Below are positions 7,472 through 62,592 of a DNA stretch of 64,000 bases, one piece after another; position 1 is the stretch's first letter; each line of letters starts with the position of its first letter. The notes beneath the pieces were generated by a model, which did not search any database, was not told the origin of the DNA, and was given only the letters and a program-made list of their open reading frames with translations. A program made the translations under genes and the position numbers. Source of the DNA: Chlamydiota bacterium (GTDB taxonomy: Bacteria; Auribacterota; JACPWU01); contig JACPWU010000021.1 of NCBI GenBank assembly GCA_016196885.1, positions 3,618 through 67,617 on the forward strand. The letters are read 5' to 3'.

Positions 7472-8503
7472 CTACTGAGAATCTTTCAATTTCTCCACTT
7501 TTTTTTCCAACTCTTTCACCCGGTCGAAAAATGGACCCAGGCGGCGAACATTTGCAATATTTCTTTTTTCTTCTTGAATGGGAAGGGCGGGAGAGCCCCA
7601 CAAAACCATACCTTTTGGCACATCCTTTGAAATTCCAGATTTTGCGGCAATAATAACCTCATCCCCCACTTCAATATGTCCGACCAAACCCGCCTGTCCT
7701 CCAATAATCACATGATGACCAATCTGGGTCGTCCCGGAAATCCCCACTTGGGCTACAATCAGGCAATGTTCACCGATTTCAACGTTATGGGCCACCTGAA
7801 CCAAATTATCAATCTTGGTCCCTTTTTTAATCACCGTCTTCCCAAAGCGAGCGCGGTCCACCGTGACATTGGCCCCCATTTCTACATCATCTCCTATCAC
7901 CACATGTCCAACCTGGGGAATTTTATGATGAACCCCATCCACCGTCTCAAAACCAAAGCCGTCGCTACCAATCACTGTCCCACTGTGAATGATGACACGA
8001 TCCCCCATCACCGTCTCTTCTCGAATCGTGACATGGGGATAAATCAAAGTGTCTCGACCGACTTGACTGTGATGACCGATAAACGAACCCGCCCCGATCG
8101 AGCTTCCTTTCCCAATCTGAACGCCCTCTTCAACCACGGCATAAGGGCCAATGTTTACCGATGGCCCTAAGGAAACGTCCTTCCCTAGAACGGCTGTAGG
8201 ATGAATTCCCTTTGGAAATCCATTGGATGAAGGTTTAAACTGTTCAACAACCTTGTTAAAAGCCAGAGAAGGATTCTTACAGCGAATGACGGTTTTACCA
8301 GGAGGAGGAGAAATTTCCTCTCCTACCAAAACCGCACTGGCTCTCGTCTCATCCAAAAAAGGAAGATATTTAGGATTCGAAAGAAAAGTAATATCCCCTT
8401 CCCGGGCCTCCTTCATTCCGGCCACACCTCCAATCTTGATCTCTGGGCGACCCAAGAGTGTTCCTCCTACCAGTGTTGCAATGTCTTTTAAAGAAAGTTC
8501 CAT
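7472..8503 (-). CDS. lpxD: UDP-3-O-acylglucosamine N-acyltransferase
   Basis: 343 aa; LpxD-type N-terminal domain followed by long hexapeptide repeats. Confidence 0.85.
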   Translation of the reverse strand: MELSLKDIATLVGGTLLGRPEIKIGGVAGMKEAREGDITFLSNPKYLPFLDETRASAVLVGEEISPPPGKTVIRCKNPSLAFNKVVEQFKPSSNGFPKGIHPTAVLGKDVSLGPSVNIGPYAVVEEGVQIGKGSSIGAGSFIGHHSQVGRDTLIYPHVTIREETVMGDRVIIHSGTVIGSDGFGFETVDGVHHKIPQVGHVVIGDDVEMGANVTVDRARFGKTVIKKGTKIDNLVQVAHNVEIGEHCLIVAQVGISGTTQIGHHVIIGGQAGLVGHIEVGDEVIIAAKSGISKDVPKGMVLWGSPALPIQEEKRNIANVRRLGPFFDRVKELEKKVEKLKDSQ

Positions 8504-8588
8504 GAAATACCGTTTCTCGTTTATCGTTGATCGTTTATCGTTAATGGAAATTCTATATTAACGTTTAACGTTCAACGTCTAACAGCTT

Positions 8589-9131
8589 TTACTTTGCCTC
8601 CGCCGGCTTATCCTTCGCCCCTTGGGCTTTCGCCTTCGCCTTTTCATTCATTCTCTTGGTCACCTGTGCTGAAATATCATAGGTAGGGGTTTTATAAAGA
8701 AGGGCACGATCGTTGAAAATCAGATTGTACTTTCCTTCTTTTCCAATCTCCTCAATGGTGGCCTTGATATCATCAAAAATCCCCTTCAAGAGAAAATCCC
8801 TTTTGTTTCGAAGCTCGCTTTTTGTCTTTTCATCAAAATCCTTCAGTGCATTGATCTTCTCATTAATGACAGATTCCTTCTCTTTGCGAGCCTCTTCATT
8901 TAAAAGTTCTGATTCTTCCTTCAACTTCTTAATTTCATCCACCATCTTGGCCCTCTCAGCCGTTTTCCCCTTACCCTCTTCCTTCAACTTCGCATCATTC
9001 TGCTTCGTGAGGTCATATTCGTTAAAAACCTTTTCGACATCCACATAACCTATTTTTAAATCCTCTGCCCAAGCCTTGTTGAACAAACTCAAAAAAAACA
9101 AACCCGCTACCACCATCGCCAACTTTTTCAT
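8589..9131 (-). CDS. skp: OmpH/Skp periplasmic chaperone
   Basis: 180 aa with signal peptide and a Lys/Glu-rich coiled-coil; sits between lpxD and bamA as in many Gram-negatives. Confidence 0.75.
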   Translation of the reverse strand: MKKLAMVVAGLFFLSLFNKAWAEDLKIGYVDVEKVFNEYDLTKQNDAKLKEEGKGKTAERAKMVDEIKKLKEESELLNEEARKEKESVINEKINALKDFDEKTKSELRNKRDFLLKGIFDDIKATIEEIGKEGKYNLIFNDRALLYKTPTYDISAQVTKRMNEKAKAKAQGAKDKPAEAK

Positions 9132-17338: not shown

Positions 17339-17429
17339 AGAAGTCAGAATTCAGAAGTCAGAATAATAAGGAGGTTATTTTATTCTGAATTCTGTCTTCT
17401 TACTTCTGTTTTCTGACTTCTGAATTCTG
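17339..17429. repeat. Palindromic element I1 (CAGAA/TTCTG-rich) spanning the prs-glmU junction
   Basis: agaagtcagaattcagaagtcagaataataagg...ttattctgaattctgtcttcttacttctgttttctgacttctgaattctg; right arm encodes the glmU C-terminus. Confidence 0.5.
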
Positions 17430-18810: not shown

Positions 18811-18881
18811 TGCCCGGTGGTGTAATGGTAACACAGCAGTTTTTGGAGCTGCTTTTCTAGGTTCGAATCCTAGCCGGGCAG
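18811..18881 (+). tRNA. tRNA-Gln (anticodon UUG)
   Basis: Hand-folded cloverleaf: acceptor tgcccgg/ccgggca with U1-A72 typical of tRNA-Gln, D-stem gtgt/acac, anticodon stem gcagt/gctgc with loop ttTTGga, T-arm ctagg-ttcgaat-cctag. Confidence 0.8.
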
Positions 18882-39639: not shown

Positions 39640-39762
39640 AGGTGATATAGATATTCTCTGATAAGGGCAAACTATCCGTAAGGATAGGACGCAAAGCCAT
39701 GGGCCCCTGGGTAGCTAGGGAGGGGGGTCGCCAGGTTGCCGGAGCATAGGCTGAAGAGTCAA
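39640..39762 (+). promoter_or_regulatory. Candidate c-di-GMP-I (GEMM) riboswitch aptamer
   Basis: GGGCAAAC, then 5-bp stem with GUAA (GNRA) tetraloop, then GGACGCAAAGCC, then a second GC-rich hairpin. The junction strings and stem length match the Vibrio cholerae Vc2 aptamer as recalled from memory. Confidence 0.6.
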
Positions 39763-49346: not shown

Positions 49347-50183
49347 TTATGAGGAGACAGCTTCTACAATTCTCTCCAAATCTTCCACAGAATAATATTC
49401 AATCTCGATTTTGCCCTTTTTCTGACCGTGTTTGATATAAACCTTGGTATGAAGTGCCTCTTCTAACTTTTCTTCCATGGCCTTGAGCTCAGGATTTTTC
49501 TTCAAAATCTTTCGATGAAAAGGTTTTTTCTGAACTTGCACCCTCTCTTCAATTTCGCGAACGGAAAGGCCCCTTTTCACAACCTCTTGCGCCCATTTGA
49601 TCTGGTCTTGCGAGTTGGAAAGCCCCAAAATAGCCTTGGCATGCCCAAAGGTTAAATCCCCTTTTTCCATCATTTCTTGAATTTCTTTGGGGAGACTCAA
49701 AAGGCGAAGAAAGTTGGCTACCGTCGCTCTGTTTTTTCCAACCTTCTCTGCTACAGAGTCTTGAGTCAATTCATAATCCCGCATCAGCCGCATGTAGGCC
49801 CGGGCTTCCTCCATCAGACCTAAATTCTGCCTCTGAATATTCTCAATCAACGCCATTTGCAAAGAGGCTTCATCTGTTGCCTCTTTCACAAGCGCTGGAA
49901 TCCGTGTCCAGCCCAAGGCCTTGGCAGCCCTGAGTCGCCTTTCTCCAGCGATTAATTCATATCGGGATTGATGTCTGCGAACCAAAATAGGTTGAAGAAG
50001 CCCGCTTGTTTTCAATGACTCTTTGAGTTCTATCAAAGAAGCCTCATCAAAATCTTTTCGAGGCTGCTGGGGATTGAGATCTATCCATTGAATATCCACC
50101 GATTCTACTTTCCCATCAGGTCCTGCAATGGGTGTGTTTTGAATTAATGCACCTAACCCCTTGCCTAAAGCTTGCTTAGCCAT
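49347..50183 (-). CDS. parB: Chromosome partitioning protein ParB
   Basis: ParB box GERRLRAAK, HTH, C-terminal dimerisation domain. Confidence 0.85.
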   Translation of the reverse strand: MAKQALGKGLGALIQNTPIAGPDGKVESVDIQWIDLNPQQPRKDFDEASLIELKESLKTSGLLQPILVRRHQSRYELIAGERRLRAAKALGWTRIPALVKEATDEASLQMALIENIQRQNLGLMEEARAYMRLMRDYELTQDSVAEKVGKNRATVANFLRLLSLPKEIQEMMEKGDLTFGHAKAILGLSNSQDQIKWAQEVVKRGLSVREIEERVQVQKKPFHRKILKKNPELKAMEEKLEEALHTKVYIKHGQKKGKIEIEYYSVEDLERIVEAVSS

Positions 50184-50289: not shown

Positions 50290-51162
50290 TTACAAGATTT
50301 TATAGTCCCCGCGGGATAGTTCCCTGTGGAAAAGAGGGCTGGGGGAGTTATGAGTTTTCGTAGTGTCGCCAACCTTTAAGGATTCAAAAGATTGAACCCC
50401 TAAGTTACGTTCCATAAACTCCTTAGCAAACTGTAAATAGCTTTCAGCTCCTATCGAAGCCTCATCATAATAAAGAATCGGTTTCCCGAAGCTGGGGGCT
50501 TCGCTCAGTCGGACACTGCGAGGAATGACTGTTTTGAATATGAACTCTGGGAAATACTTGCGCACCTCTTCCATCACTTGCCGCGTTAAATTGGTTCTCA
50601 AATCAGCCATGGTGAAAAGAATGCCTGCGACTCCCAAATGCGAATTGATATTGGCCCGGACCAGATCCACCGTTTTTAGAAGCTGTGTTAATCCCTCCAA
50701 GGCATAATACTCGCATTGAATCGGCATGAGAACCCCATCAGCCGCTGAAAGGGCATTGATGGTCAGCACATTTAAAGAAGGCGGACAATCAATGATAATG
50801 CATCCATAATTTTCCTTAGCTTTTGCTAAGAGCTTTCTTAAAATATTATTTCTATCCTCGATTTCTAAAAGCTCAATCTCAGCTCCCGTTAAATCCGCAA
50901 CTGAGGGAATCACCTCCATTCCATCCCAAGAAGTGGACACGATTGCTTCGGCTAGAGGCAATTGCTTCACCAAAACACTGTAAATACTCTTTTCAATTTT
51001 ATTTCGATCCAAACCGACGCCACTGGTCGCATTGGCTTGGGGATCCATGTCAATGAGAAGAGTTTTAACTTTTAACCGGGAGAGAGAAGCAGCCAAATTA
51101 ACAGCCGTGGTCGTTTTTCCAACGCCCCCTTTTTGGTTGGTAACCGCAATGATTTTACCCAT
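50290..51162 (-). CDS. parA: Chromosome partitioning ATPase ParA/Soj (C-terminal about 30-aa extension partly encoded by repeat E2)
   Basis: Deviant Walker A KGGVGKTTT; 290 aa versus about 255 typical. Confidence 0.85.
   Translation of the reverse strand: MGKIIAVTNQKGGVGKTTTAVNLAASLSRLKVKTLLIDMDPQANATSGVGLDRNKIEKSIYSVLVKQLPLAEAIVSTSWDGMEVIPSVADLTGAEIELLEIEDRNNILRKLLAKAKENYGCIIIDCPPSLNVLTINALSAADGVLMPIQCEYYALEGLTQLLKTVDLVRANINSHLGVAGILFTMADLRTNLTRQVMEEVRKYFPEFIFKTVIPRSVRLSEAPSFGKPILYYDEASIGAESYLQFAKEFMERNLGVQSFESLKVGDTTKTHNSPSPLFHRELSRGDYKIL
50313..50350. repeat. Repeat E2 inside the 3' extension of parA
   Basis: gggatagttccctgtggaaaagagggctgggggagtta. Confidence 0.5.
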
Positions 51163-51177
51163 AAGGGAATCTCCAGA

Positions 51178-51250
51178 GGACAGAACTCAGAATACAGAAT
51201 AAATACAACTCCTTAATCATTCTGACTTCTGAGTTCTGTCTTCTGTCTTC
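51178..51250. repeat. Palindromic element I2 upstream of parA
   Basis: ggacagaactcagaatacagaata...tcattctgacttctgagttctgtcttctgtc. Confidence 0.5.
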
Positions 51251-51260
51251 CGATCTATTA

Positions 51261-51274
51261 GTTCCACGTGGAAC
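51261..51274. promoter_or_regulatory. Second GTTCCACGTGGAAC palindrome, about 100 bp upstream of parA
   Basis: Perfect 14-bp palindrome identical to the core of the 52536..52567 site. Confidence 0.5.
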
Positions 51275-51396
51275 AAAATAATGATACATGGCTTATACAA
51301 AAGAAAGCAAGATTTTTGATGAGCAAAATTAAGAAATCCGCCTTTTTTATTGTGGGTGACTCTGAAAGGGTCCCTCCAAGTTATTCTGGAAATTGA

Positions 51397-51844
51397 TTGT
51401 AGTCGCCCCATTTATGGGGCCATGCATGGATTGCCCGATAAATCGGGCGACTACGCTTGACGGATCAAGAATACTTGAGCCAAGTCCATATGCCAAAATT
51501 TATTTCTCCGACAGGCTCCTAGCCCGCATTTCTCATCAGATTTCGTCGCGAGTCCGCCTAAGGTGGATTGGAGGGGAGGTTGCACGACTGAGGCCATGCG
51601 AGGCATACCTTACAGTATGTTGAGCGTGGCCGACCGAGTCTGCACGGAGGGACGAAGCGGAATCGGAGAAGAGCGGCAGAAATCTGACGAGAAACGGCCA
51701 TGACTTTCAGTCACAAAGGGGGATGAAAATCACCCTTGTAGTCGCCCCATTTATGGGGCTGCCCGATGAATCGGGCGACTACAAGTAATCATAACTTATT
51801 GTATAAAAATAAGTAAAGACTATTTTCAGATGAAACGCGGGCTA
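51397..51844. repeat. Composite repeat C2 (inverted-arm copy of C1, with an extra A-core hairpin at its left end)
   Basis: Core gcatttctcatcagatttcg...ttacagtatgttgagcgtggccgacc...gcagaaatctgacgagaaac followed by the reverse-complemented C1 arm; overlaps the stop of the hypothetical secreted-protein gene. Confidence 0.65.
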
Positions 51845-52498
51845 AAACCCTGCCTGAGATTCTAACTGCTTCTGCCAGGCTAGGCGAATCATTTCTAATT
51901 TTCTCAAAATATCTTGGAAAGAAGACCCTTGGTCTATCATCATAACCAGTTCATCAATATCTTTCGTCGTCAATCCCAGATTGACACTTCTCGTCTCTTG
52001 TTGGACCCAGGTCACATTTCTGCGAATCAAATCTAAGCTGCCCGGTTTCTCCTCTCTGGAGAAGGACTGGACATAAGAGGCCACACATTCTGCACCTTCT
52101 AAATGCACTCCCAATATAAAAAGGCTTGAAATCTGTGTGCTTAAACTCGCCCACGTGTTTTGTTCAAACTCAATGCTGCCAAGCAAACTCTGTCGAATTT
52201 CTGGAAAAGTGAGCTGATCTAACTGAGATTGAAGCTGAACCAGAGAATTGGCTGGATTTCCCATTCTTCGAGAAGTATCAATGCTCCAGGAAAGATTTCG
52301 CTTGATTAAATCGAGGGACCCTGGTCTTTCAGCTGTTGAAAAAGCCTCATTCAAAGAAGCGGTGCACTCGGCCCCTCCCAATTGTATCCCCAAAATAAAC
52401 ACGTCCCTCTTCATTTCATCAGCCAAGGATTTTCCAGGATGAAAAACAGCAAGGGTTAGAACCAAAAATAAAGCCTCAACAAAGGATTTAAGTTTCAA
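51842..52498 (-). CDS. Secreted hypothetical protein with internal ~95-aa tandem duplication (TTG start with AAAGGAGG SD)
   Basis: Signal peptide MKLKSFVEALFLVLTLAVF; duplicated block ILG(I/V)(Q/H)L(G/E)GAEC(T/V)AS...PGSLDLI(K/R)RN. Confidence 0.45.
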   Translation of the reverse strand: MKLKSFVEALFLVLTLAVFHPGKSLADEMKRDVFILGIQLGGAECTASLNEAFSTAERPGSLDLIKRNLSWSIDTSRRMGNPANSLVQLQSQLDQLTFPEIRQSLLGSIEFEQNTWASLSTQISSLFILGVHLEGAECVASYVQSFSREEKPGSLDLIRRNVTWVQQETRSVNLGLTTKDIDELVMMIDQGSSFQDILRKLEMIRLAWQKQLESQAGF

Positions 52499-52535
52499 GA
52501 AAACCTCCTTTCATTAAGAGCAGTGAATAGCACTT

Positions 52536-52567
52536 AAATGTTTTGTTCCACGTGGAACAAAACATTT
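52536..52567. promoter_or_regulatory. Perfect 32-bp palindrome aaatgttttgttccacgtggaacaaaacattt (CACGTG-centred), 38 bp upstream of the secreted-protein gene start and 2 bp after the ATPase stop
   Basis: Sequence equals its reverse complement over 32 bp. Confidence 0.6.
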
Positions 52568-52569
52568 AA

Positions 52570-54036
52570 TTAACTTCCAAAAAAATCATCCAGGGTTAAA
52601 ATGGTATCAAAATAAGCCCCTGTCTTCACTGCTTTTTGAACGCCGTGGGAGGCAATGAGGACTCTGCGAAAACTTTTTTTCTTGAGTTGGAGATGCGTTT
52701 CAAAAAGTTTTATCTTATCCTCAAAAGCATGAACTACTTCCATCCCGACAGGCCTTCTCTGATATTTGATTTCGCAAAGCGTTATCACGTGATCATCCCG
52801 GTCAAAGACAAGATCCATTTGAAAACCAGGATTCTTGTCTTGAGTCTTCCGGTTAAAAAAGACCCCGTGGCGATATCGGACAGATGCAAATCCCAAAAGA
52901 TCGGCAAGGTCTGTATGATGGCTTCTACAAAACCTCTCGAAGGCCAAACCCAACCATTTTTGATAACTTGAAACATCGAGTCCCATCCCGGGATTTTCGT
53001 CAAAGTCACCCAGGGTAATACGATTCAGTTGGGGTCGGATAAATTTATTGTAGAATTGAATGTAGTAGTCTCTGATACCGTATCTGACCAGTAGACTTTT
53101 GAAATCAGCGAAATAAGGGGTGTTTCTCTCGATAAAGGTACATCTTTCAAGGTCCTCAAGCACTTTTGTGATCTCGCCGCCAGAACTGATTCCCAGATGA
53201 TGGGCAATTTCATCACGGGTTGAAAATTTTTTGCGGGACAAGAAGTCTAGGATTTTTTGATAATGTTTGTTCGAAGATAAACTGCTCGTAAAAATGCGAT
53301 CGTATTCTCTTACAAAAAGGCCGGTGGAAGAAAATGCGTTTTGGCAAATTCCTAAAAAGACAGAATCCGCTTCTTTAAGATATTTCAAATACTCTGGAAT
53401 TCCGCCCACCGTCAAATAGGCCTCCATGACTTCTTCATGAGATCGGCTTCCAAGAAATGTTTTAACCTCTTTCACGGAAAGTTCTTTCAGGTGAAATTCA
53501 TGCATGGAACGATTGTATAACGCCTTGGAATGCAATACCTTATTAACCAAAAAGGAAGGGGAAGACCCACACAGAATGAGCAAGAGCTTTGGATGATGTC
53601 TAAAATGATTGTCCCAAGCCCACTTCAAATCAGAAATAAATTCATCTTTTTGATCTGCTAGCCACTGAACCTCTTCAAAGTAAAGGGTCCAGATCCCTTT
53701 TCGAAGGGCATCTGCCAGAATTTTGAAAAACTCCATCCAGGTCTCATGTCCGGAAAAAGGGCGTTTCTTTTTTTTAAGGTAATAGCCCAATTGGATATAA
53801 CAACGTTTCAGTTGTTCAGAGCCCTTAAGTCCTTCAACCCCCTCAAATTTCAGGATATTCCGGTCCCGAAAGGTTTGTTCCAAAAGCTCGGTTTTCCCAA
53901 CCCGGCGACGGCCGTACATCACGATGATTTGGGCCTTGGGGGAATGGGCAATCTGGAGGAGCTTTTCTTGTTCCTGCCTTCGTCCAATGAAATTGGAATG
54001 AATGGGTATTTGTTTGGATTTCATAAAAATCGCCAA
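52570..54036 (-). CDS. AAA+ ATPase (archaeal-ATPase-like, PF01637) with C-terminal DUF234 domain
   Basis: Walker A GRRRVGKTEL, DExx-like LLILCGS, C-terminal about 100-aa DUF234-like region. Confidence 0.6.
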   Translation of the reverse strand: MAIFMKSKQIPIHSNFIGRRQEQEKLLQIAHSPKAQIIVMYGRRRVGKTELLEQTFRDRNILKFEGVEGLKGSEQLKRCYIQLGYYLKKKKRPFSGHETWMEFFKILADALRKGIWTLYFEEVQWLADQKDEFISDLKWAWDNHFRHHPKLLLILCGSSPSFLVNKVLHSKALYNRSMHEFHLKELSVKEVKTFLGSRSHEEVMEAYLTVGGIPEYLKYLKEADSVFLGICQNAFSSTGLFVREYDRIFTSSLSSNKHYQKILDFLSRKKFSTRDEIAHHLGISSGGEITKVLEDLERCTFIERNTPYFADFKSLLVRYGIRDYYIQFYNKFIRPQLNRITLGDFDENPGMGLDVSSYQKWLGLAFERFCRSHHTDLADLLGFASVRYRHGVFFNRKTQDKNPGFQMDLVFDRDDHVITLCEIKYQRRPVGMEVVHAFEDKIKLFETHLQLKKKSFRRVLIASHGVQKAVKTGAYFDTILTLDDFFGS

Positions 54037-54123
54037 TTACTGTTGTAAAATCTCATAATTGGCGATTTTTGTCAATATTTTATCCAAATAGTATCATTTT
54101 TATAGCTATTTGGATAATGGGTC

Positions 54124-56029: not shown

Positions 56030-56698
56030 TTATTTTGAGGCAATACTAACATCCTTGATTACTTGGGGCAGGTATAAATTCATCCAAGAGGTTTGTTTCT
56101 GAGAAAGAACCTCTTTTGTCCCAATACCCTTTGTCATTTCAAAACAGCCATTCATTTGAATTAAGAGTTCACGGACCTCTAAGCTTTCTGAAAGATTCTC
56201 CAAGGCCTTTCTAAATTCACTCGGGTAACTCGCATGAAGAAGGCATAGGTCATAAATATCTGTAGGTTCAATTCGATCCACAACACAATAGAGTTTCTCC
56301 AGGATCATGTCTTTTTCAGATAAAATCGGGCACCGAAGTTCGGGCTCATAAAGCAATGTGACCGGACGCCAAATTTTTCCAATATCGACTTTTGTTTCAA
56401 GTTTGGGATATCTGATATACAGTTGACAGAAGTGTTCTCCACGACGCGTAATTCTATATTTAACCTTCTCAAGATTACACTGCTTCACAAGCTCAAGCAT
56501 CGCCTTGTAACTAGAGATTTCTTCTTTCGGGGAGAGAATATCTACGTCCTTACTGTTGCGCGCATGTTGTGGAAGTCTTAAGGTTAGCCACGTTCCTCCC
56601 GAGAGGGCATAATTTTTACGGATGAGCGGACATTTTAAAATCCATTTGGCAAGTGATAAAATATCTTGCCTTGAAGGCTCTTCAGGCATTTTTTTCAT
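56030..56698 (-). CDS. AbiEii/DUF1814-family nucleotidyltransferase (type IV TA toxin-like)
   Basis: N-terminal motif LSGGTWLTLRL...RNSKDVDIL matches the GGTxL...RxSxDhD signature of AbiEii-type NTases; overlaps the stop of the upstream HTH gene. Confidence 0.55.
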   Translation of the reverse strand: MKKMPEEPSRQDILSLAKWILKCPLIRKNYALSGGTWLTLRLPQHARNSKDVDILSPKEEISSYKAMLELVKQCNLEKVKYRITRRGEHFCQLYIRYPKLETKVDIGKIWRPVTLLYEPELRCPILSEKDMILEKLYCVVDRIEPTDIYDLCLLHASYPSEFRKALENLSESLEVRELLIQMNGCFEMTKGIGTKEVLSQKQTSWMNLYLPQVIKDVSIASK

Positions 56699-57086
56699 AA
56701 AGACCTCGAATCAGACTTTTGCGAAAAATTCTTTCAAGAAGGGTTCTTCCTTTGCGCACATATTTTTCCGCCACAGACCTTTGAATCATTTTAGGAATGA
56801 GTTGTGGGGCACGCCTAAAAAGAATGGGAATCATTTCTTCTTTCGATGGGATTGATTGTTCTCTCCAGAAGATTGAATAGGGAGCTATTTTTTGAGGTCT
56901 TCCAGAGGAATAGTGTCCTTGAATTTTTTTAAAACGATCGAAAGAAGCTAATGGAATAAACCAGGTATGTCCCTTTTTCAAACATTGCTTCAAGCGCTTT
57001 TCCCGGCAATATCGAGCCATCAAGGACTTCGTAATTCCTAATCTTGCCGCTGCCTCAGTGGCTGTTAAGAAAACATTCTTCATCAT
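56682..57086 (-). CDS. HTH (excisionase/HTH_17-like) DNA-binding protein, putative antitoxin/regulator partner of the NTase
   Basis: MMKNVFLTATEAAARLGITKSLMARYCREKRL helix-turn-helix; track ORF (TTG start inside repeat H2) trimmed to the internal Met pair. Confidence 0.45.
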   Translation of the reverse strand: MMKNVFLTATEAAARLGITKSLMARYCREKRLKQCLKKGHTWFIPLASFDRFKKIQGHYSSGRPQKIAPYSIFWREQSIPSKEEMIPILFRRAPQLIPKMIQRSVAEKYVRKGRTLLERIFRKSLIRGLYEKNA

Positions 57087-57201
57087 GATTTTATTATACA
57101 CTATTTTGAACAATTTTTGAAAAATTTTGGGATGGTAGACTTTGGTCAAATGGACTGGATTTGATTCGGGAATTTTAAAGGTTAAAGATTTTAAGTATTT
57201 T

Positions 57202-57242
57202 AACCCTTGGACGTTTGAACTTTTCAACCCTTAAACTTTTTT
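57202..57242. repeat. Element H2 between the HTH gene and mnmE
   Basis: aacccttggacgtttgaacttttcaacccttaaacttttttt, similar to H1. Confidence 0.45.
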
Positions 57243-58674: not shown

Positions 58675-59082
58675 TCATCGTGTCAGCCATTCCTTTAGAA
58701 AGTCTGCGGGAGATCGGACATGGACTCCCAACTTTTTCGCGGCATGAAAATGTCTTGCATTGCCCGTGACCAGGACCTCCACATGGCCCGTGACAGCCAC
58801 CTCGATGAAGGCACGGTCCGTCTCATCCAAAAACCGATCAGGGATGACTTGTGGCAAAACCAGCAGTGCCTGGTCTAACAAGGCATCCAAAAAGTCGTCA
58901 ACACTTTGATTAGAAAGGGAAAACTTTCCACGGGTGAGAACTTCACGATACTCATTGCAAATGCGATCGTCCACGCAAAGTTCCACATCACCTCGTAAGA
59001 GGAGTTGAACAACTCGATGGCAAGTCCCACCTGGTGTGAGAATGGACGACACCAAAACATTTGTATCTAGAACAATCCTCAT
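58675..59082 (-). CDS. PIN-domain ribonuclease-type toxin
   Basis: MRIVLDTNVLVSS with conserved acidic residues; ATGA overlap with the upstream antitoxin stop. Confidence 0.6.
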   Translation of the reverse strand: MRIVLDTNVLVSSILTPGGTCHRVVQLLLRGDVELCVDDRICNEYREVLTRGKFSLSNQSVDDFLDALLDQALLVLPQVIPDRFLDETDRAFIEVAVTGHVEVLVTGNARHFHAAKKLGVHVRSPADFLKEWLTR

Positions 59083-59375
59083 GGTGAAGGATGCCGTCTT
59101 CCTCTTCGAACTTGCTGAATCCACCCTTCGATCTGTGTCTTGCTCAGCCGATTCAACCCCTTTCGTCTGGCCTCTTCCTGTAGTTTAATCAAAGCGGCCA
59201 TACCCCGAGCTTGACGCCAAACACGCAAGGTTTGTTCGAAGGATCTCTCATTCAGAGGCGCGAGCAATCCCATGGGTTTACCTCTGGATGTCAATACCAG
59301 CTCTCTTTCTTCCTTTAGCATTCGCCACACAGAGCCAGGGTGGAGACGAAATTCTCTGACCGGTACGAATTTCAT
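59079..59375 (-). CDS. Phd/YefM-like antitoxin
   Basis: MKFVPVREFRLHPGSVWRMLKEERELVLTSRGKPMGLL is a typical Phd N-terminus; trimmed from the track ORF. Confidence 0.55.
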   Translation of the reverse strand: MKFVPVREFRLHPGSVWRMLKEERELVLTSRGKPMGLLAPLNERSFEQTLRVWRQARGMAALIKLQEEARRKGLNRLSKTQIEGWIQQVRRGRRHPSP

Positions 59376-62262: not shown

Positions 62263-62400
62263 TCAAGAAACGACGAGACGACGGCGCCCTTTCCTTCTGC
62301 GGCTTTTCAAAACCGCACGCCCCCCGTGCGTCGAAGATCTCTTGCGAAATCCATGGGTGCGGCGCCTTCTCAAACGAGATGGACGAAAAGTTCTTTTCAC
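62263..62400 (-). CDS. rpmH: 50S ribosomal protein L34 (GTG start); not in the ORF track
   Basis: Translation [45 protein letters not shown] aligns with E. coli L34 [44 protein letters not shown]; stop abuts rnpA start. Confidence 0.75.
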
Positions 62401-62592
62401 GTGAAAACCCTCTTTTCAAAAATAAACCTCCCCTGACCCTCTTTGAAAAAAGGGGCAAGGGGGAATTTTTATTCTATTTTGTTCCGGTTTAACGACATTT
62501 TATAATAACACCGCTTTTAAATTTAAGGGCACCATTCTATAGAGGGAAGCGCTCGGTGTCAAGAGCCGTCATTAGATCGGGATAAACAGCCT

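Follow-up and report, generated by a model that had tools for sequence, protein, structure and literature searches.

Gene neighbourhood and features of the locus

Two palindromes centred on CACGTG lie in the spacer between mnmG and parA in the window (the whole 64-kb stretch of DNA that was analysed), both of them within the classic cluster rpmH-rnpA-yidC-mnmE-mnmG-parAB. Proximity to the replication origin rests on this gene neighbourhood and on a change of GC-skew sign ~10–13 kb rightward, just past the right end of the window and coinciding with a gene-strand switch, since no oriC was found in the window, dnaA is absent from the window and from locus L094, and no DnaA-box cluster was identified. 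The genes and features are as follows.

49347..50183, minus strand: parB (spo0J), 278 aa; predicted binder of both sites
50290..51162, minus strand: parA (soj), 290 aa; deviant Walker-A partition ATPase (Pfam AAA_31, 3.7e-66; CbiA; MipZ)
51260..51275, no strand: predicted parS site 1, AGTTCCACGTGGAACA; one mismatch to TGTTNCACGTGNAACA, at the outermost position
51842..52498, minus strand: gene for an orphan protein of 218 aa that has a signal peptide and two helical repeats of ~95 aa, between the two predicted parS sites
52534..52569, no strand: 36-bp perfect palindrome that embeds site 2, with 10 extra symmetric bp per arm
52544..52559, no strand: predicted parS site 2, TGTTCCACGTGGAACA; a perfect 16-bp match (0 mismatches) to TGTTNCACGTGNAACA
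52570..54024, minus strand: 484-aa PF01637-type ATPase of the PADLOC candidate defence family PDC-S27, between mnmG and site 2
62263-62400, minus strand: rpmH, with a GTG start
62394..62407, no strand: TTTTCACGTGAAAA, a palindrome spanning the rpmH GTG start, outside the parS system

The gene parA lies directly upstream of parB, an arrangement that constitutes a canonical ParA–ParB operon immediately downstream of the two sites, and the motif KGGVGKT can be read directly off the ParA sequence. ParB comprises the Pfam domains ParB_N, HTH_ParB and ParB_C; among NCBIfam models it passes parB_part (190.9; cutoff 58) and does not reach the cutoff for Noc (233.7; cutoff 315). It matches Spo0J/ParB entries in the PDB with E values of 2e-50 to 1e-40, and is homologous to the proteins of the solved ParB–parS complexes 6t1f and 4umk. 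The CTP motif GERRxRA (G80-E81-R82-R83-x-R85-A86) is invariant across the clade. The specificity residues R152 and G180 are the equivalents of Caulobacter R173 and G201, so that the protein carries the R...G signature of the parS type, unlike the Q...R of Noc (PMC7383237).

The gene between the two sites begins with a TTG codon at 52498, preceded by the Shine-Dalgarno sequence GGAGG, as an earlier note on this DNA had described, and the 36-bp palindrome ends 35 nt ahead of that start. An internal duplication of ~95 aa, likewise described there, is confirmed by a local alignment score of 142 (26 ± 5 for shuffled sequences). The protein has no match in Pfam, NCBIfam or PADLOC; its AF2 model is all-alpha (pLDDT 91) and finds no significant match among PDB folds (best E 0.13). 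It is 69% identical to the product of the gene at the same position in the related locus L006, and nine homologues were found, some of them in non-par contexts. The gene is a bystander in the spacer that separates mnmG from parA and carries parS.

The ATPase is likewise a bystander, inserted between mnmG and site 2, and it is missing at the equivalent position in the related loci L006, L008 and L009. It matches PDC-S27 over its full length (E 1e-98) and has homologues on plasmids and in phage WO, in keeping with the defence or mobile context suggested for it previously. The DUF234 domain that had also been attributed to it is not detected by Pfam at E <= 1, which returns ATPase_2 (PF01637), AAA_14 and weak wHTH-like matches. 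Dispersed repeats also occupy the mnmG–parA spacer. One is the GTAGTCGCCCC... double hairpin, which recurs at six or more loci; the others are a repeat of 147 bp and a leader hairpin, a relative of which lies at 17.3 kb. Neither the palindromes nor the spacer gave a meaningful Rfam match, whether the whole window was searched or, with permissive settings, 51150-51860; the top hit, bglG-cis-reg, reached 31 bits where the gathering score is 80.

Sequence and position of the two palindromes

The 14-bp core GTTCCACGTGGAAC is found at exactly two places in the 64-kb window, 51261-51274 and 52545-52558, and allowing up to two mismatches adds no further match (chance expectation 0.14). In their 16-bp extended forms the sites read AGTTCCACGTGGAACA (site 1) and TGTTCCACGTGGAACA (site 2); both fit the palindrome tGTTNCACGTGNAACa, site 2 with no mismatch and site 1 with one outer mismatch, and a search of the window with the universal parS consensus TGTTNCACGTGNAACA at up to two mismatches likewise returns these two sites and none elsewhere. 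The sequence common to both is only 21 nt, and parS half-sites show no enrichment (9 against an expected 7.8). Site 1 is located 98 nt upstream of the parA ATG (51162), in agreement with the recurrence of the core ~100 bp ahead of parA reported in the earlier note. The symmetry around site 2 is indeed flawless, as stated there, and extends over 36 bp (52534-52569) rather than 32.

The site 2 sequence TGTTCCACGTGGAACA is identical to the published, experimentally characterised parS of P. putida and to parS2 and parS3 of P. aeruginosa, and parS of M. xanthus is TGTTCCACGTGGAACG (PMC7022226, Table 1; PMC4368675). A single outer mismatch, as in site 1, still permits binding of parS by P. aeruginosa ParB (PMC4368675).

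Conservation in relatives

All relatives (ParB 51–68% identical) for which sequence upstream of parA is available have a parS-like site there, exact or with one mismatch; the sequences of L095 and L096 do not reach into the region upstream of parA. The mnmG–parA spacer contains two such sites in L006 and in L097, and one each in L008, L009, L011 and L012. Equivalents directly upstream of parA are present in L006 (at 9064), L011, L012 and L097, and equivalents of site 2, after mnmG, in L006, L008 and L009. The arrangement of two sites around the 218-aa gene recurs in L006, and L008 and L009 keep a site and are missing the gene. When the relatives are aligned the core alone is invariant, and the flanks are unrelated. 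At the more distant loci L001–L004 (GTDB representatives; ParB 38–45% identical) no parS-like site was found at up to two mismatches in the retrieved DNA. A metagenome scan with the clade ParB alignment, the patterns of which were too general, yielded only relatives of 41–50% identity and was reused as a background set. Among 80 unrelated ParB loci, 34 of the 52 unique parS-like sites are upstream of parA.

The palindromes as probable parS sites

The two GTTCCACGTGGAAC palindromes are very probably chromosomal parS, the centromere-like loading sites of a ParABS system, and by analogy with characterized systems we infer that ParB binds at them, spreads from them and acts there in segregation. 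CTP-bound dimers of ParB, encoded 1–2 kb downstream, would use their helix-turn-helix domains to recognise each 16-bp palindrome. They would close to form clamps and slide onto the flanking DNA, thereby building a partition complex over this presumably origin-proximal region; this complex would in turn stimulate the ParA ATPase, so that sister origins are moved apart. In many species the ParB partition complex also loads the SMC condensin. The spacer that carries the sites tolerates insertions (the PDC-S27 candidate defence ATPase, the orphan secreted protein, and REP-like as well as larger non-coding repeats); genes can therefore sit within the ParB loading zone.

One close likeness is to the Pseudomonas systems, where perfect and one-mismatch copies are likewise clustered near parAB, there in the origin region, and where the cognate ParB has an HTH domain and a CTP-binding N-terminal domain. 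However, both sites here are intergenic and upstream of parA, whereas in P. aeruginosa 9 of the 10 fall within coding sequence; here, moreover, one site is set within a 36-bp perfect palindrome, and the host is an uncultured MAG, labelled Chlamydiae by NCBI, whose sites are known from sequence. The Spo0J(ParB)–parS systems of Bacillus subtilis, Caulobacter and Thermus (consensus TGTTNCACGTGAAACA) share the consensus, the ParB architecture and the DNA-contact residues (the R173 and G201 equivalents; PMC7383237), and the homology of the window ParB to 1vz0, 6sdk and 6t1f has E values of 1e-45 to 2e-50. The half-site here differs from theirs at the N position, where it has C (GTTCCAC, as opposed to GTTTCAC), and the protein differs in having K183 for the conserved R204 and N151 for S172. 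Noc, the nucleoid occlusion protein of Firmicutes, is paralogous to ParB, gives similar HMM scores and binds a 16-bp palindrome (NBS, ATTTCCCGGGAAAT core). The window ParB, in contrast, is under the NCBIfam Noc cutoff, has R/G and not Q/R, and is encoded in a parA–parB operon, while its predicted DNA sites are of the parS and not the NBS type, with G and A at half-site positions 1 and 6, respectively (PMC7383237).

Do the palindromes act as operators?

The earlier note had taken the palindromes to be operators for a dimeric regulator, and part of that reading holds: they are non-random, and are predicted sites for a dimeric HTH protein. As a novel operator shared by parAB and the 218-aa gene, and bound either by an unidentified dimeric regulator or by ParB acting mainly as a repressor, they are unlikely candidates. 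Both are intergenic and upstream of start codons, at 35 nt from the 218-aa gene and 98 nt from parA, and in L006 a site is found only 21 bp before the parA ATG; in P. aeruginosa, ParB at the intergenic parS3 and parS4 represses the adjacent genes (PMC7022226, section 10). The nearest precedent for such a function is KorB–OB of IncP plasmids, in which a ParB-family global repressor acts at palindromes in promoter regions; however, KorB matches only distantly (8qa8, E 1e-12), and the sites here are canonical chromosomal parS without fixed promoter geometry. The motif, moreover, is the universal parS, and its distances are variable, 21–175 bp to parA across loci and 35 as compared to 288 bp to the 218-aa gene, which argues against a fixed relationship of operator to promoter. 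In B. subtilis, loss of Spo0J leaves the expression of parS-adjacent genes unchanged (PMC7022226).

The link between partitioning and an accessory gene that the earlier note drew from the shared site is likewise not borne out by the relatives. In every one of them, including L008 and L009, from which the 218-aa gene is missing, the site remains at the par locus, and it is absent beside the homologue of this gene that lies outside a par locus (L098/L099; no parS-like site at up to three mismatches in 12.6 kb). A modest dampening of adjacent promoters by ParB is possible by analogy. The palindromes are standard parS for the ParB encoded next door and therefore a textbook feature, not a new regulatory link. 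Their significance is mainly one of annotation, namely the predicted centromere, with a complete, canonical ParABS, of a PVC-group MAG that is uncultured and carries the label Chlamydiae, and the apparent novel regulatory palindrome is struck off the list of candidates.

The 36-bp palindrome as a possible RNA hairpin

A further proposal gives the 36-bp palindrome its main role in RNA, where it would form a hairpin to terminate or stabilise the ATPase transcript, its match to parS being incidental. The palindrome abuts the ATPase stop codon (52570-52572) and is predicted to fold stably (16-bp stem; centroid -19.2 kcal/mol; region z -3.1), and several extended parS palindromes from other bacteria have T-runs after them and resemble bidirectional terminators. 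However, the outer stem is A/U-rich and flanked by a T-run on the 5' side and an A-run on the 3' side; no U-tract is present on either strand, and the terminator scan does not call the element. A canonical intrinsic terminator is thus ruled out because there is no U-tract, and the suggestion in the earlier note that the palindrome might terminate the ATPase transcript is unsupported on the same two observations. Furthermore, the 16-bp core is invariant across relatives and not co-varying, it is present in relatives without the ATPase, and its second copy, upstream of parA (site 1), has no extended symmetry. A primary function as a hairpin is accordingly improbable, more so than one as an operator.

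It is more improbable still, to the point of being practically negligible, that the motif is a chance recurrence or a member of a dispersed REP/MITE family: although genuine dispersed repeats are present in this spacer, the 14-mer is found only twice in 64 kb where 0.14 matches are expected at up to two mismatches, the two copies share just the 21 nt noted above without half-site enrichment, and relatives without the spacer repeats retain the site at the orthologous position.

Extended symmetry at parS sites

With the palindromes thus read as parS, ParB recognition neither requires nor explains the 10-bp extension of each arm of site 2, and the flanks of the 36-bp palindrome are not conserved among relatives. 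The likeliest reading of the extra symmetry is that intergenic parS sites in general tend to lie within longer, hairpin-forming palindromes.

In many bacteria parS lies within a longer palindrome more often than chance predicts. For 60 unique parS-like sites, sampled from this clade and from the 80 unrelated ParB loci, 214 arm-to-arm complementary pairs are counted in the flanks to ~6 bp past the 16-mer, compared with 151 ± 9 after permutation, and base preference does not account for the complementarity. Among 31 perfect 16-mers, nine extend by at least 4 bp on each arm, with a total length of 36 bp in two cases. That parS is generally embedded in this way, either by selection or as the footprint of symmetrisation by template switching, and that this amounts to an undescribed layer of the centromere, is a speculative proposition that we consider doubtful, if somewhat less so than a shared operator. 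Were the symmetry selected, it might serve in hairpin or cruciform formation, in terminators that insulate the ParB loading site, or in extended contacts; were it due to repeated template switching, symmetrisation would occur at a site kept perfectly palindromic by selection. In either event the 36-bp site described here would be an extreme example. This statistical tendency is the only element of the locus with wider potential.

A CACGTG palindrome at rpmH

A third CACGTG palindrome, TTTTCACGTGAAAA, does span the GTG start of rpmH as the earlier note recorded, but its proposed kinship with the other two does not hold. The motif is a different one, with four mismatches to a 16-bp parS that include the invariant G at position 2 of each half-site (PMC4368675; PMC7383237), and it is not conserved; in L008 and L009 rpmH has an ATG start and unrelated upstream sequence. 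A third parS is thereby ruled out, and the rpmH palindrome is coincidental.

Two probable parS sites upstream of parAB

The 64-kb window contains exactly two copies of the 14-bp sequence GTTCCACGTGGAAC (51261-51274 and 52545-52558) and no further match with up to two mismatches, against a chance expectation of 0.14. The minus strand carries all genes between ~47 and 64 kb. The first copy precedes the parA ATG (51162) by 98 nt, bearing out the earlier note, in which the core was said to recur about 100 bp before parA. The palindrome around the second copy is perfect over 36 bp (52534-52569) and lies directly 3' of the stop codon (52570-52572) of an ATPase gene; 35 nt beyond it, at 52498, a 218-aa ORF with a GGAGG ribosome-binding site starts with TTG. 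The palindrome reported in the earlier note is thus real, while its extent, given as 32 bp ending 38 bp before the TTG, required correction. The principal features are as follows.

51260-51275: site 1, 16 bp, AGTTCCACGTGGAACA, one mismatch to the chromosomal parS consensus TGTTNCACGTGNAACA
52544-52559: site 2, 16 bp, TGTTCCACGTGGAACA, no mismatch to TGTTNCACGTGNAACA
50290-51162, minus strand: parA, Pfam AAA_31 (3.7e-66), KGGVGKT Walker A motif seen in the sequence
49347-50183, minus strand: parB, Pfam ParB_N, HTH_ParB and ParB_C
51842-52498, minus strand: 218-aa gene, with a homologue at 8184-8840 of the related locus L006
62394-62407: TTTTCACGTGAAAA, overlapping the GTG start of rpmH (62263-62400, minus strand)

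Judged from sequence, the two palindromes are very probably the parS sites of a canonical ParABS system, an ordinary, well-understood and already known feature. The conserved chromosomal parS is TGTTNCACGTGAAACA (review PMC7022226); Pseudomonas putida and P. aeruginosa have TGTTCCACGTGGAACA itself as their parS, and Myxococcus xanthus has TGTTCCACGTGGAACG (PMC7022226, Table 1). P. aeruginosa ParB binds best to the perfect palindrome and slightly more weakly to sites with one outer mismatch, and position 2 is invariant in every parS half-site (PMC4368675). The next-best matches to TGTTNCACGTGNAACA in the window have three mismatches, which is chance level.

The parA and parB genes lie immediately downstream of the two sites. 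ParB scores 190.9 bits with the NCBIfam ParB partition model, above the cutoff of 58.45, and 233.7 with that for Noc, under the cutoff of 315; solved Spo0J/ParB structures, among them the ParB-parS co-crystals 6t1f and 4umk, match it as homologues (E 2e-50 to 1e-40), and its CTP-binding motif, GERRxRA, is invariant in the clade. By motif spacing and alignment, its DNA-contact residues map gap-free onto the Caulobacter numbering of PMC7383237: G149-K150-N151-R152 corresponds to G170-K171-S172-R173, N157 to N178, F158 to position 179, S163 to position 184, G180 to G201 and K183 to R204. Because of this mapping the two specificity-determining positions are read as R and G, unlike Noc/NBS, which has Q and R, and the protein is predicted to have parS-type and not Noc/NBS-type specificity. 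On the established picture of ParABS (PMC7022226; PMC7053999), each 16-bp palindrome would nucleate ParB dimers, which would then close into CTP-dependent clamps and spread over neighbouring DNA, and the resulting complex would activate ParA, by which the origin region would be segregated.

The sites are located in a classic origin-proximal gene cluster. On the plus strand the GC skew stays negative through the window, nears zero at 60-64 kb, and has the opposite sign in L094, a locus that reaches past the window's right end and has an identical T2SS-F protein; no dnaA was found in the window or in L094, and no DnaA-box cluster was found. These data are only suggestive of an origin-proximal location, because gene orientation switches where the skew changes.

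Conservation of the sites in relatives

In the contigs fetched for relatives with ParB 60-68% identical, synteny is kept in the order T2SS-F, rpmH, rnpA, yidD, yidC, mnmE, a variable segment, mnmG, a second variable segment, parA, parB, M48 peptidase and rsmI. Wherever a relative's contig includes sequence between mnmG and parA, the core GTTCCACGTGGAAC lies in that interval, either within TGTTCCACGTGGAACA or in a one-mismatch copy. In L006 there are two sites, at 7880 (just after mnmG) and 9064 (21 bp before parA), which flank the 218-aa gene homologue in exactly the layout of the window; L008, L009, L011 and L012 have one site each, and the outgroup L097 (ParB 51% identity) has two one-mismatch sites directly before parA. 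When eight sites were aligned with 32-nt flanks, only GTTCCACGT-GAAC was invariant and the flanks were unrelated; the spacing to the parA start varies between 21 and 175 bp. Parallel inspection of 80 unrelated metagenome ParB loci gave parS-like 16-mers in 27, with 34 of the 52 unique sites upstream of parA, and the placement seen in the window is therefore the commonest one.

The same comparison bears on the proposal that the palindromes form an operator shared by parA and the secreted-protein (218-aa) gene. The family of the latter is tiny (9 proteins in a collection of 5.8 billion), and some members are located away from par loci. One of these, at L098/L099, lacks both an upstream CACGTG and, over 12.6 kb, any parS-like site within three mismatches; conversely, L008 and L009 retain the site and lack the gene. 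The site thus belongs to the par locus, and the shared operator is not upheld. That the ParB complex exerts a secondary, modest repression on adjacent promoters has a precedent in parS3/parS4 of P. aeruginosa (PMC7022226) and is considered of low probability here.

The CACGTG palindrome that the earlier note described at the rpmH GTG start does exist, and its resemblance to the other two is a coincidence. It departs from the 16-bp parS at positions 1, 2, 15 and 16 and therefore lacks the invariant G that the R173 equivalent recognises (PMC7383237; PMC4368675). The conserved N-terminus of L34 (GTG AAA AGA) dictates the right arm of this palindrome, and rpmH of L008 and L009 has an ATG start and unrelated upstream sequence. 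It was rejected as a further parS on these grounds. CACGTG is over-represented in the whole window (13 occurrences versus 5.4 ± 2.4 expected, with 0 of 100 shuffles reaching 13); parS accounts for only two of the 13, and another, at 52786, lies within the 10-bp palindrome ATCACGTGAT inside the ATPase gene.

Extension of the palindrome beyond parS

The chance of ten extra symmetric bp per arm is about 1e-6, and this extra symmetry at 52534-52569 is not required for ParB recognition. Extended symmetry with different flanks recurs in relatives, over 26 bp in L009 (8998-9023), at least 28 bp in L012 (3-30) and 20 bp at site 1 of L006. Among the 31 unique perfect 16-mers of the unrelated background loci, 9 extend by at least 4 bp in each arm (binomial P about 4e-15); the palindrome of L091 (2882-2917), from this set, is also 36 bp. 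The 60 unique sites taken together favour particular bases at +/-1-2 (A to the left, T to the right); independently of this preference, arm-to-arm complementarity exceeds expectation to ~6 bp beyond the 16-mer (214 complementary pairs versus 150.6 ± 9.4 in permutations, 0 of 5000 reaching 214), relatedness among the sampled loci having been removed only crudely in these statistics. In many unrelated bacteria, as sampled by these 60 sites, parS tends to sit within longer palindromes.

The 36-bp palindrome is predicted to form a stable RNA hairpin (centroid -19.2 kcal/mol). On neither strand is this hairpin followed by a U-tract, and a terminator scan of the window gives no call there, which argues against its suggested role as terminator of the ATPase transcript. 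Some extended sites of A..T polarity resemble bidirectional intrinsic terminators; the window's clade has the opposite polarity, a T-run, then parS, then an A-run. The extension may stem from selection for hairpins or terminators where sites are intergenic, from quasi-palindrome (template-switch) symmetrisation about a core that selection keeps perfectly palindromic, or from extended protein contacts. A search of open-access papers found none tying parS to terminators or hairpins, which is not proof of novelty. The small residual value of the locus lies in this general tendency of parS and in an unexplained two-copy non-coding element.

The 218-aa protein, the ATPase and inserted genes

The 218-aa protein has a signal-peptide-like N-terminus followed by two ~95-aa four-helix repeats, each with conserved GAEC and PGS(L/F)DLI(K/R)RN motifs, confirming the internal duplication noted earlier. 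Its AF2 model is confident and all-alpha (pLDDT 91), and a PDB fold search with the model gave no significant match.

The ATPase had been described as PF01637 with DUF234; the Pfam PF01637 match stands, with AAA_14 just under cutoff, whereas DUF234 is absent from its Pfam matches even at E <= 1. It matches PADLOC PDC-S27 over its full length (E 1e-98), a single-gene candidate defence system from 'guilt-by-embedding', most such candidates awaiting experimental validation (PMC12988326); homologues with 25-29% identity are carried by 155 plasmids and by phage WO. Since it is missing from the corresponding position in L006, L008 and L009, it is an insertion between mnmG and a pre-existing parS. 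The yidC-mnmE-mnmG-parAB origin-region cluster is a hotspot of inserted defence and toxin-antitoxin genes, which vary between relatives.

Window: PDC-S27 ATPase, 52570-54024; AbiEii and HTH (AbiEii/AbiEi-like), 56030-57227; PIN_3 pair, ~58675-59270 (L005 annotation)
Relatives: AAA_14+DUF4143, AbiE and Fic in L006; BrnT in L008; AAA_14+DUF4143 after parB in L097

The 99-bp mnmG-ATPase spacer contains two inverted repeats, read from the sequence at 54030-54066 and 54079-54117. After one of them, TCGCCAATTA-N16-TAATTGGCGA, the minus strand continues with TTTTTATG into the ATPase ATG; this repeat looks like an mnmG terminator abutting the ATPase start, where a Shine-Dalgarno is not obvious. The other is TTATCCAAATAG...CTATTTGGATAA.

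Repeats and other non-coding content

The spacer upstream of parA is unusually long (679 bp versus 260 bp in L006) and is made up of repeats without counterpart in relatives, except that a REP-like double hairpin, GTAGTCGCCCCATTTATGGGGC...GCCCGATNAATCGGGCGACTAC, found at at least six loci in the window, is also present in L006. The family has the form GTAGTCGCCCC-ATTTAT-GGGGC ... GCCCGAT-NAA-TCGGGCGACTAC, its outer stem enclosing two small hairpins, and the search pattern gave 14 half-matches versus 2.6 expected. Copies at 21.6 and 38.5 kb have extra outer inverted repeats, CTTGATTCCCC.../...GGGGAATCAAG, and are MITE-like.

REP-like compound hairpin copies: window ~14412, 14442, 21659, 28496, 38524, 51399 and 51738; L006:7-72
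Two-copy non-coding element, ~350-390 nt: copy A, 51456-51841; copy B, 28437-~28790, opposite orientation

The 3' 147 nt of the two-copy element, comprising the REP-like double hairpin and a promoter-like TTTACT-18-TATGAT, are 96% identical between copies; the 5' part is related but rearranged. In copy A a 16-bp stem closes the core 51529-51694, with a predicted fold z of -3.5 (plus strand). A MITE or an sRNA gene is a possible identity for the element, which has no Rfam match and is not present in the relatives.

An imperfect 72-nt hairpin (51174-51245) occupies part of the parA leader, downstream of parS site 1 and before the ribosome-binding site, and has 32-nt arms that are 84% complementary; an 80% related copy lies at 17339-17408 between two minus-strand ORFs, and it is absent from L006. 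Its Rfam matches are sub-threshold only (bglG-cis-reg, 31 bits versus a gathering score of 80). The only two gathering-level Rfam hits in the window are a tRNA (18811-18881) and a c-di-GMP-I-GGC riboswitch (39657-39744; RF03167, 67.4 bits versus a gathering score of 59).
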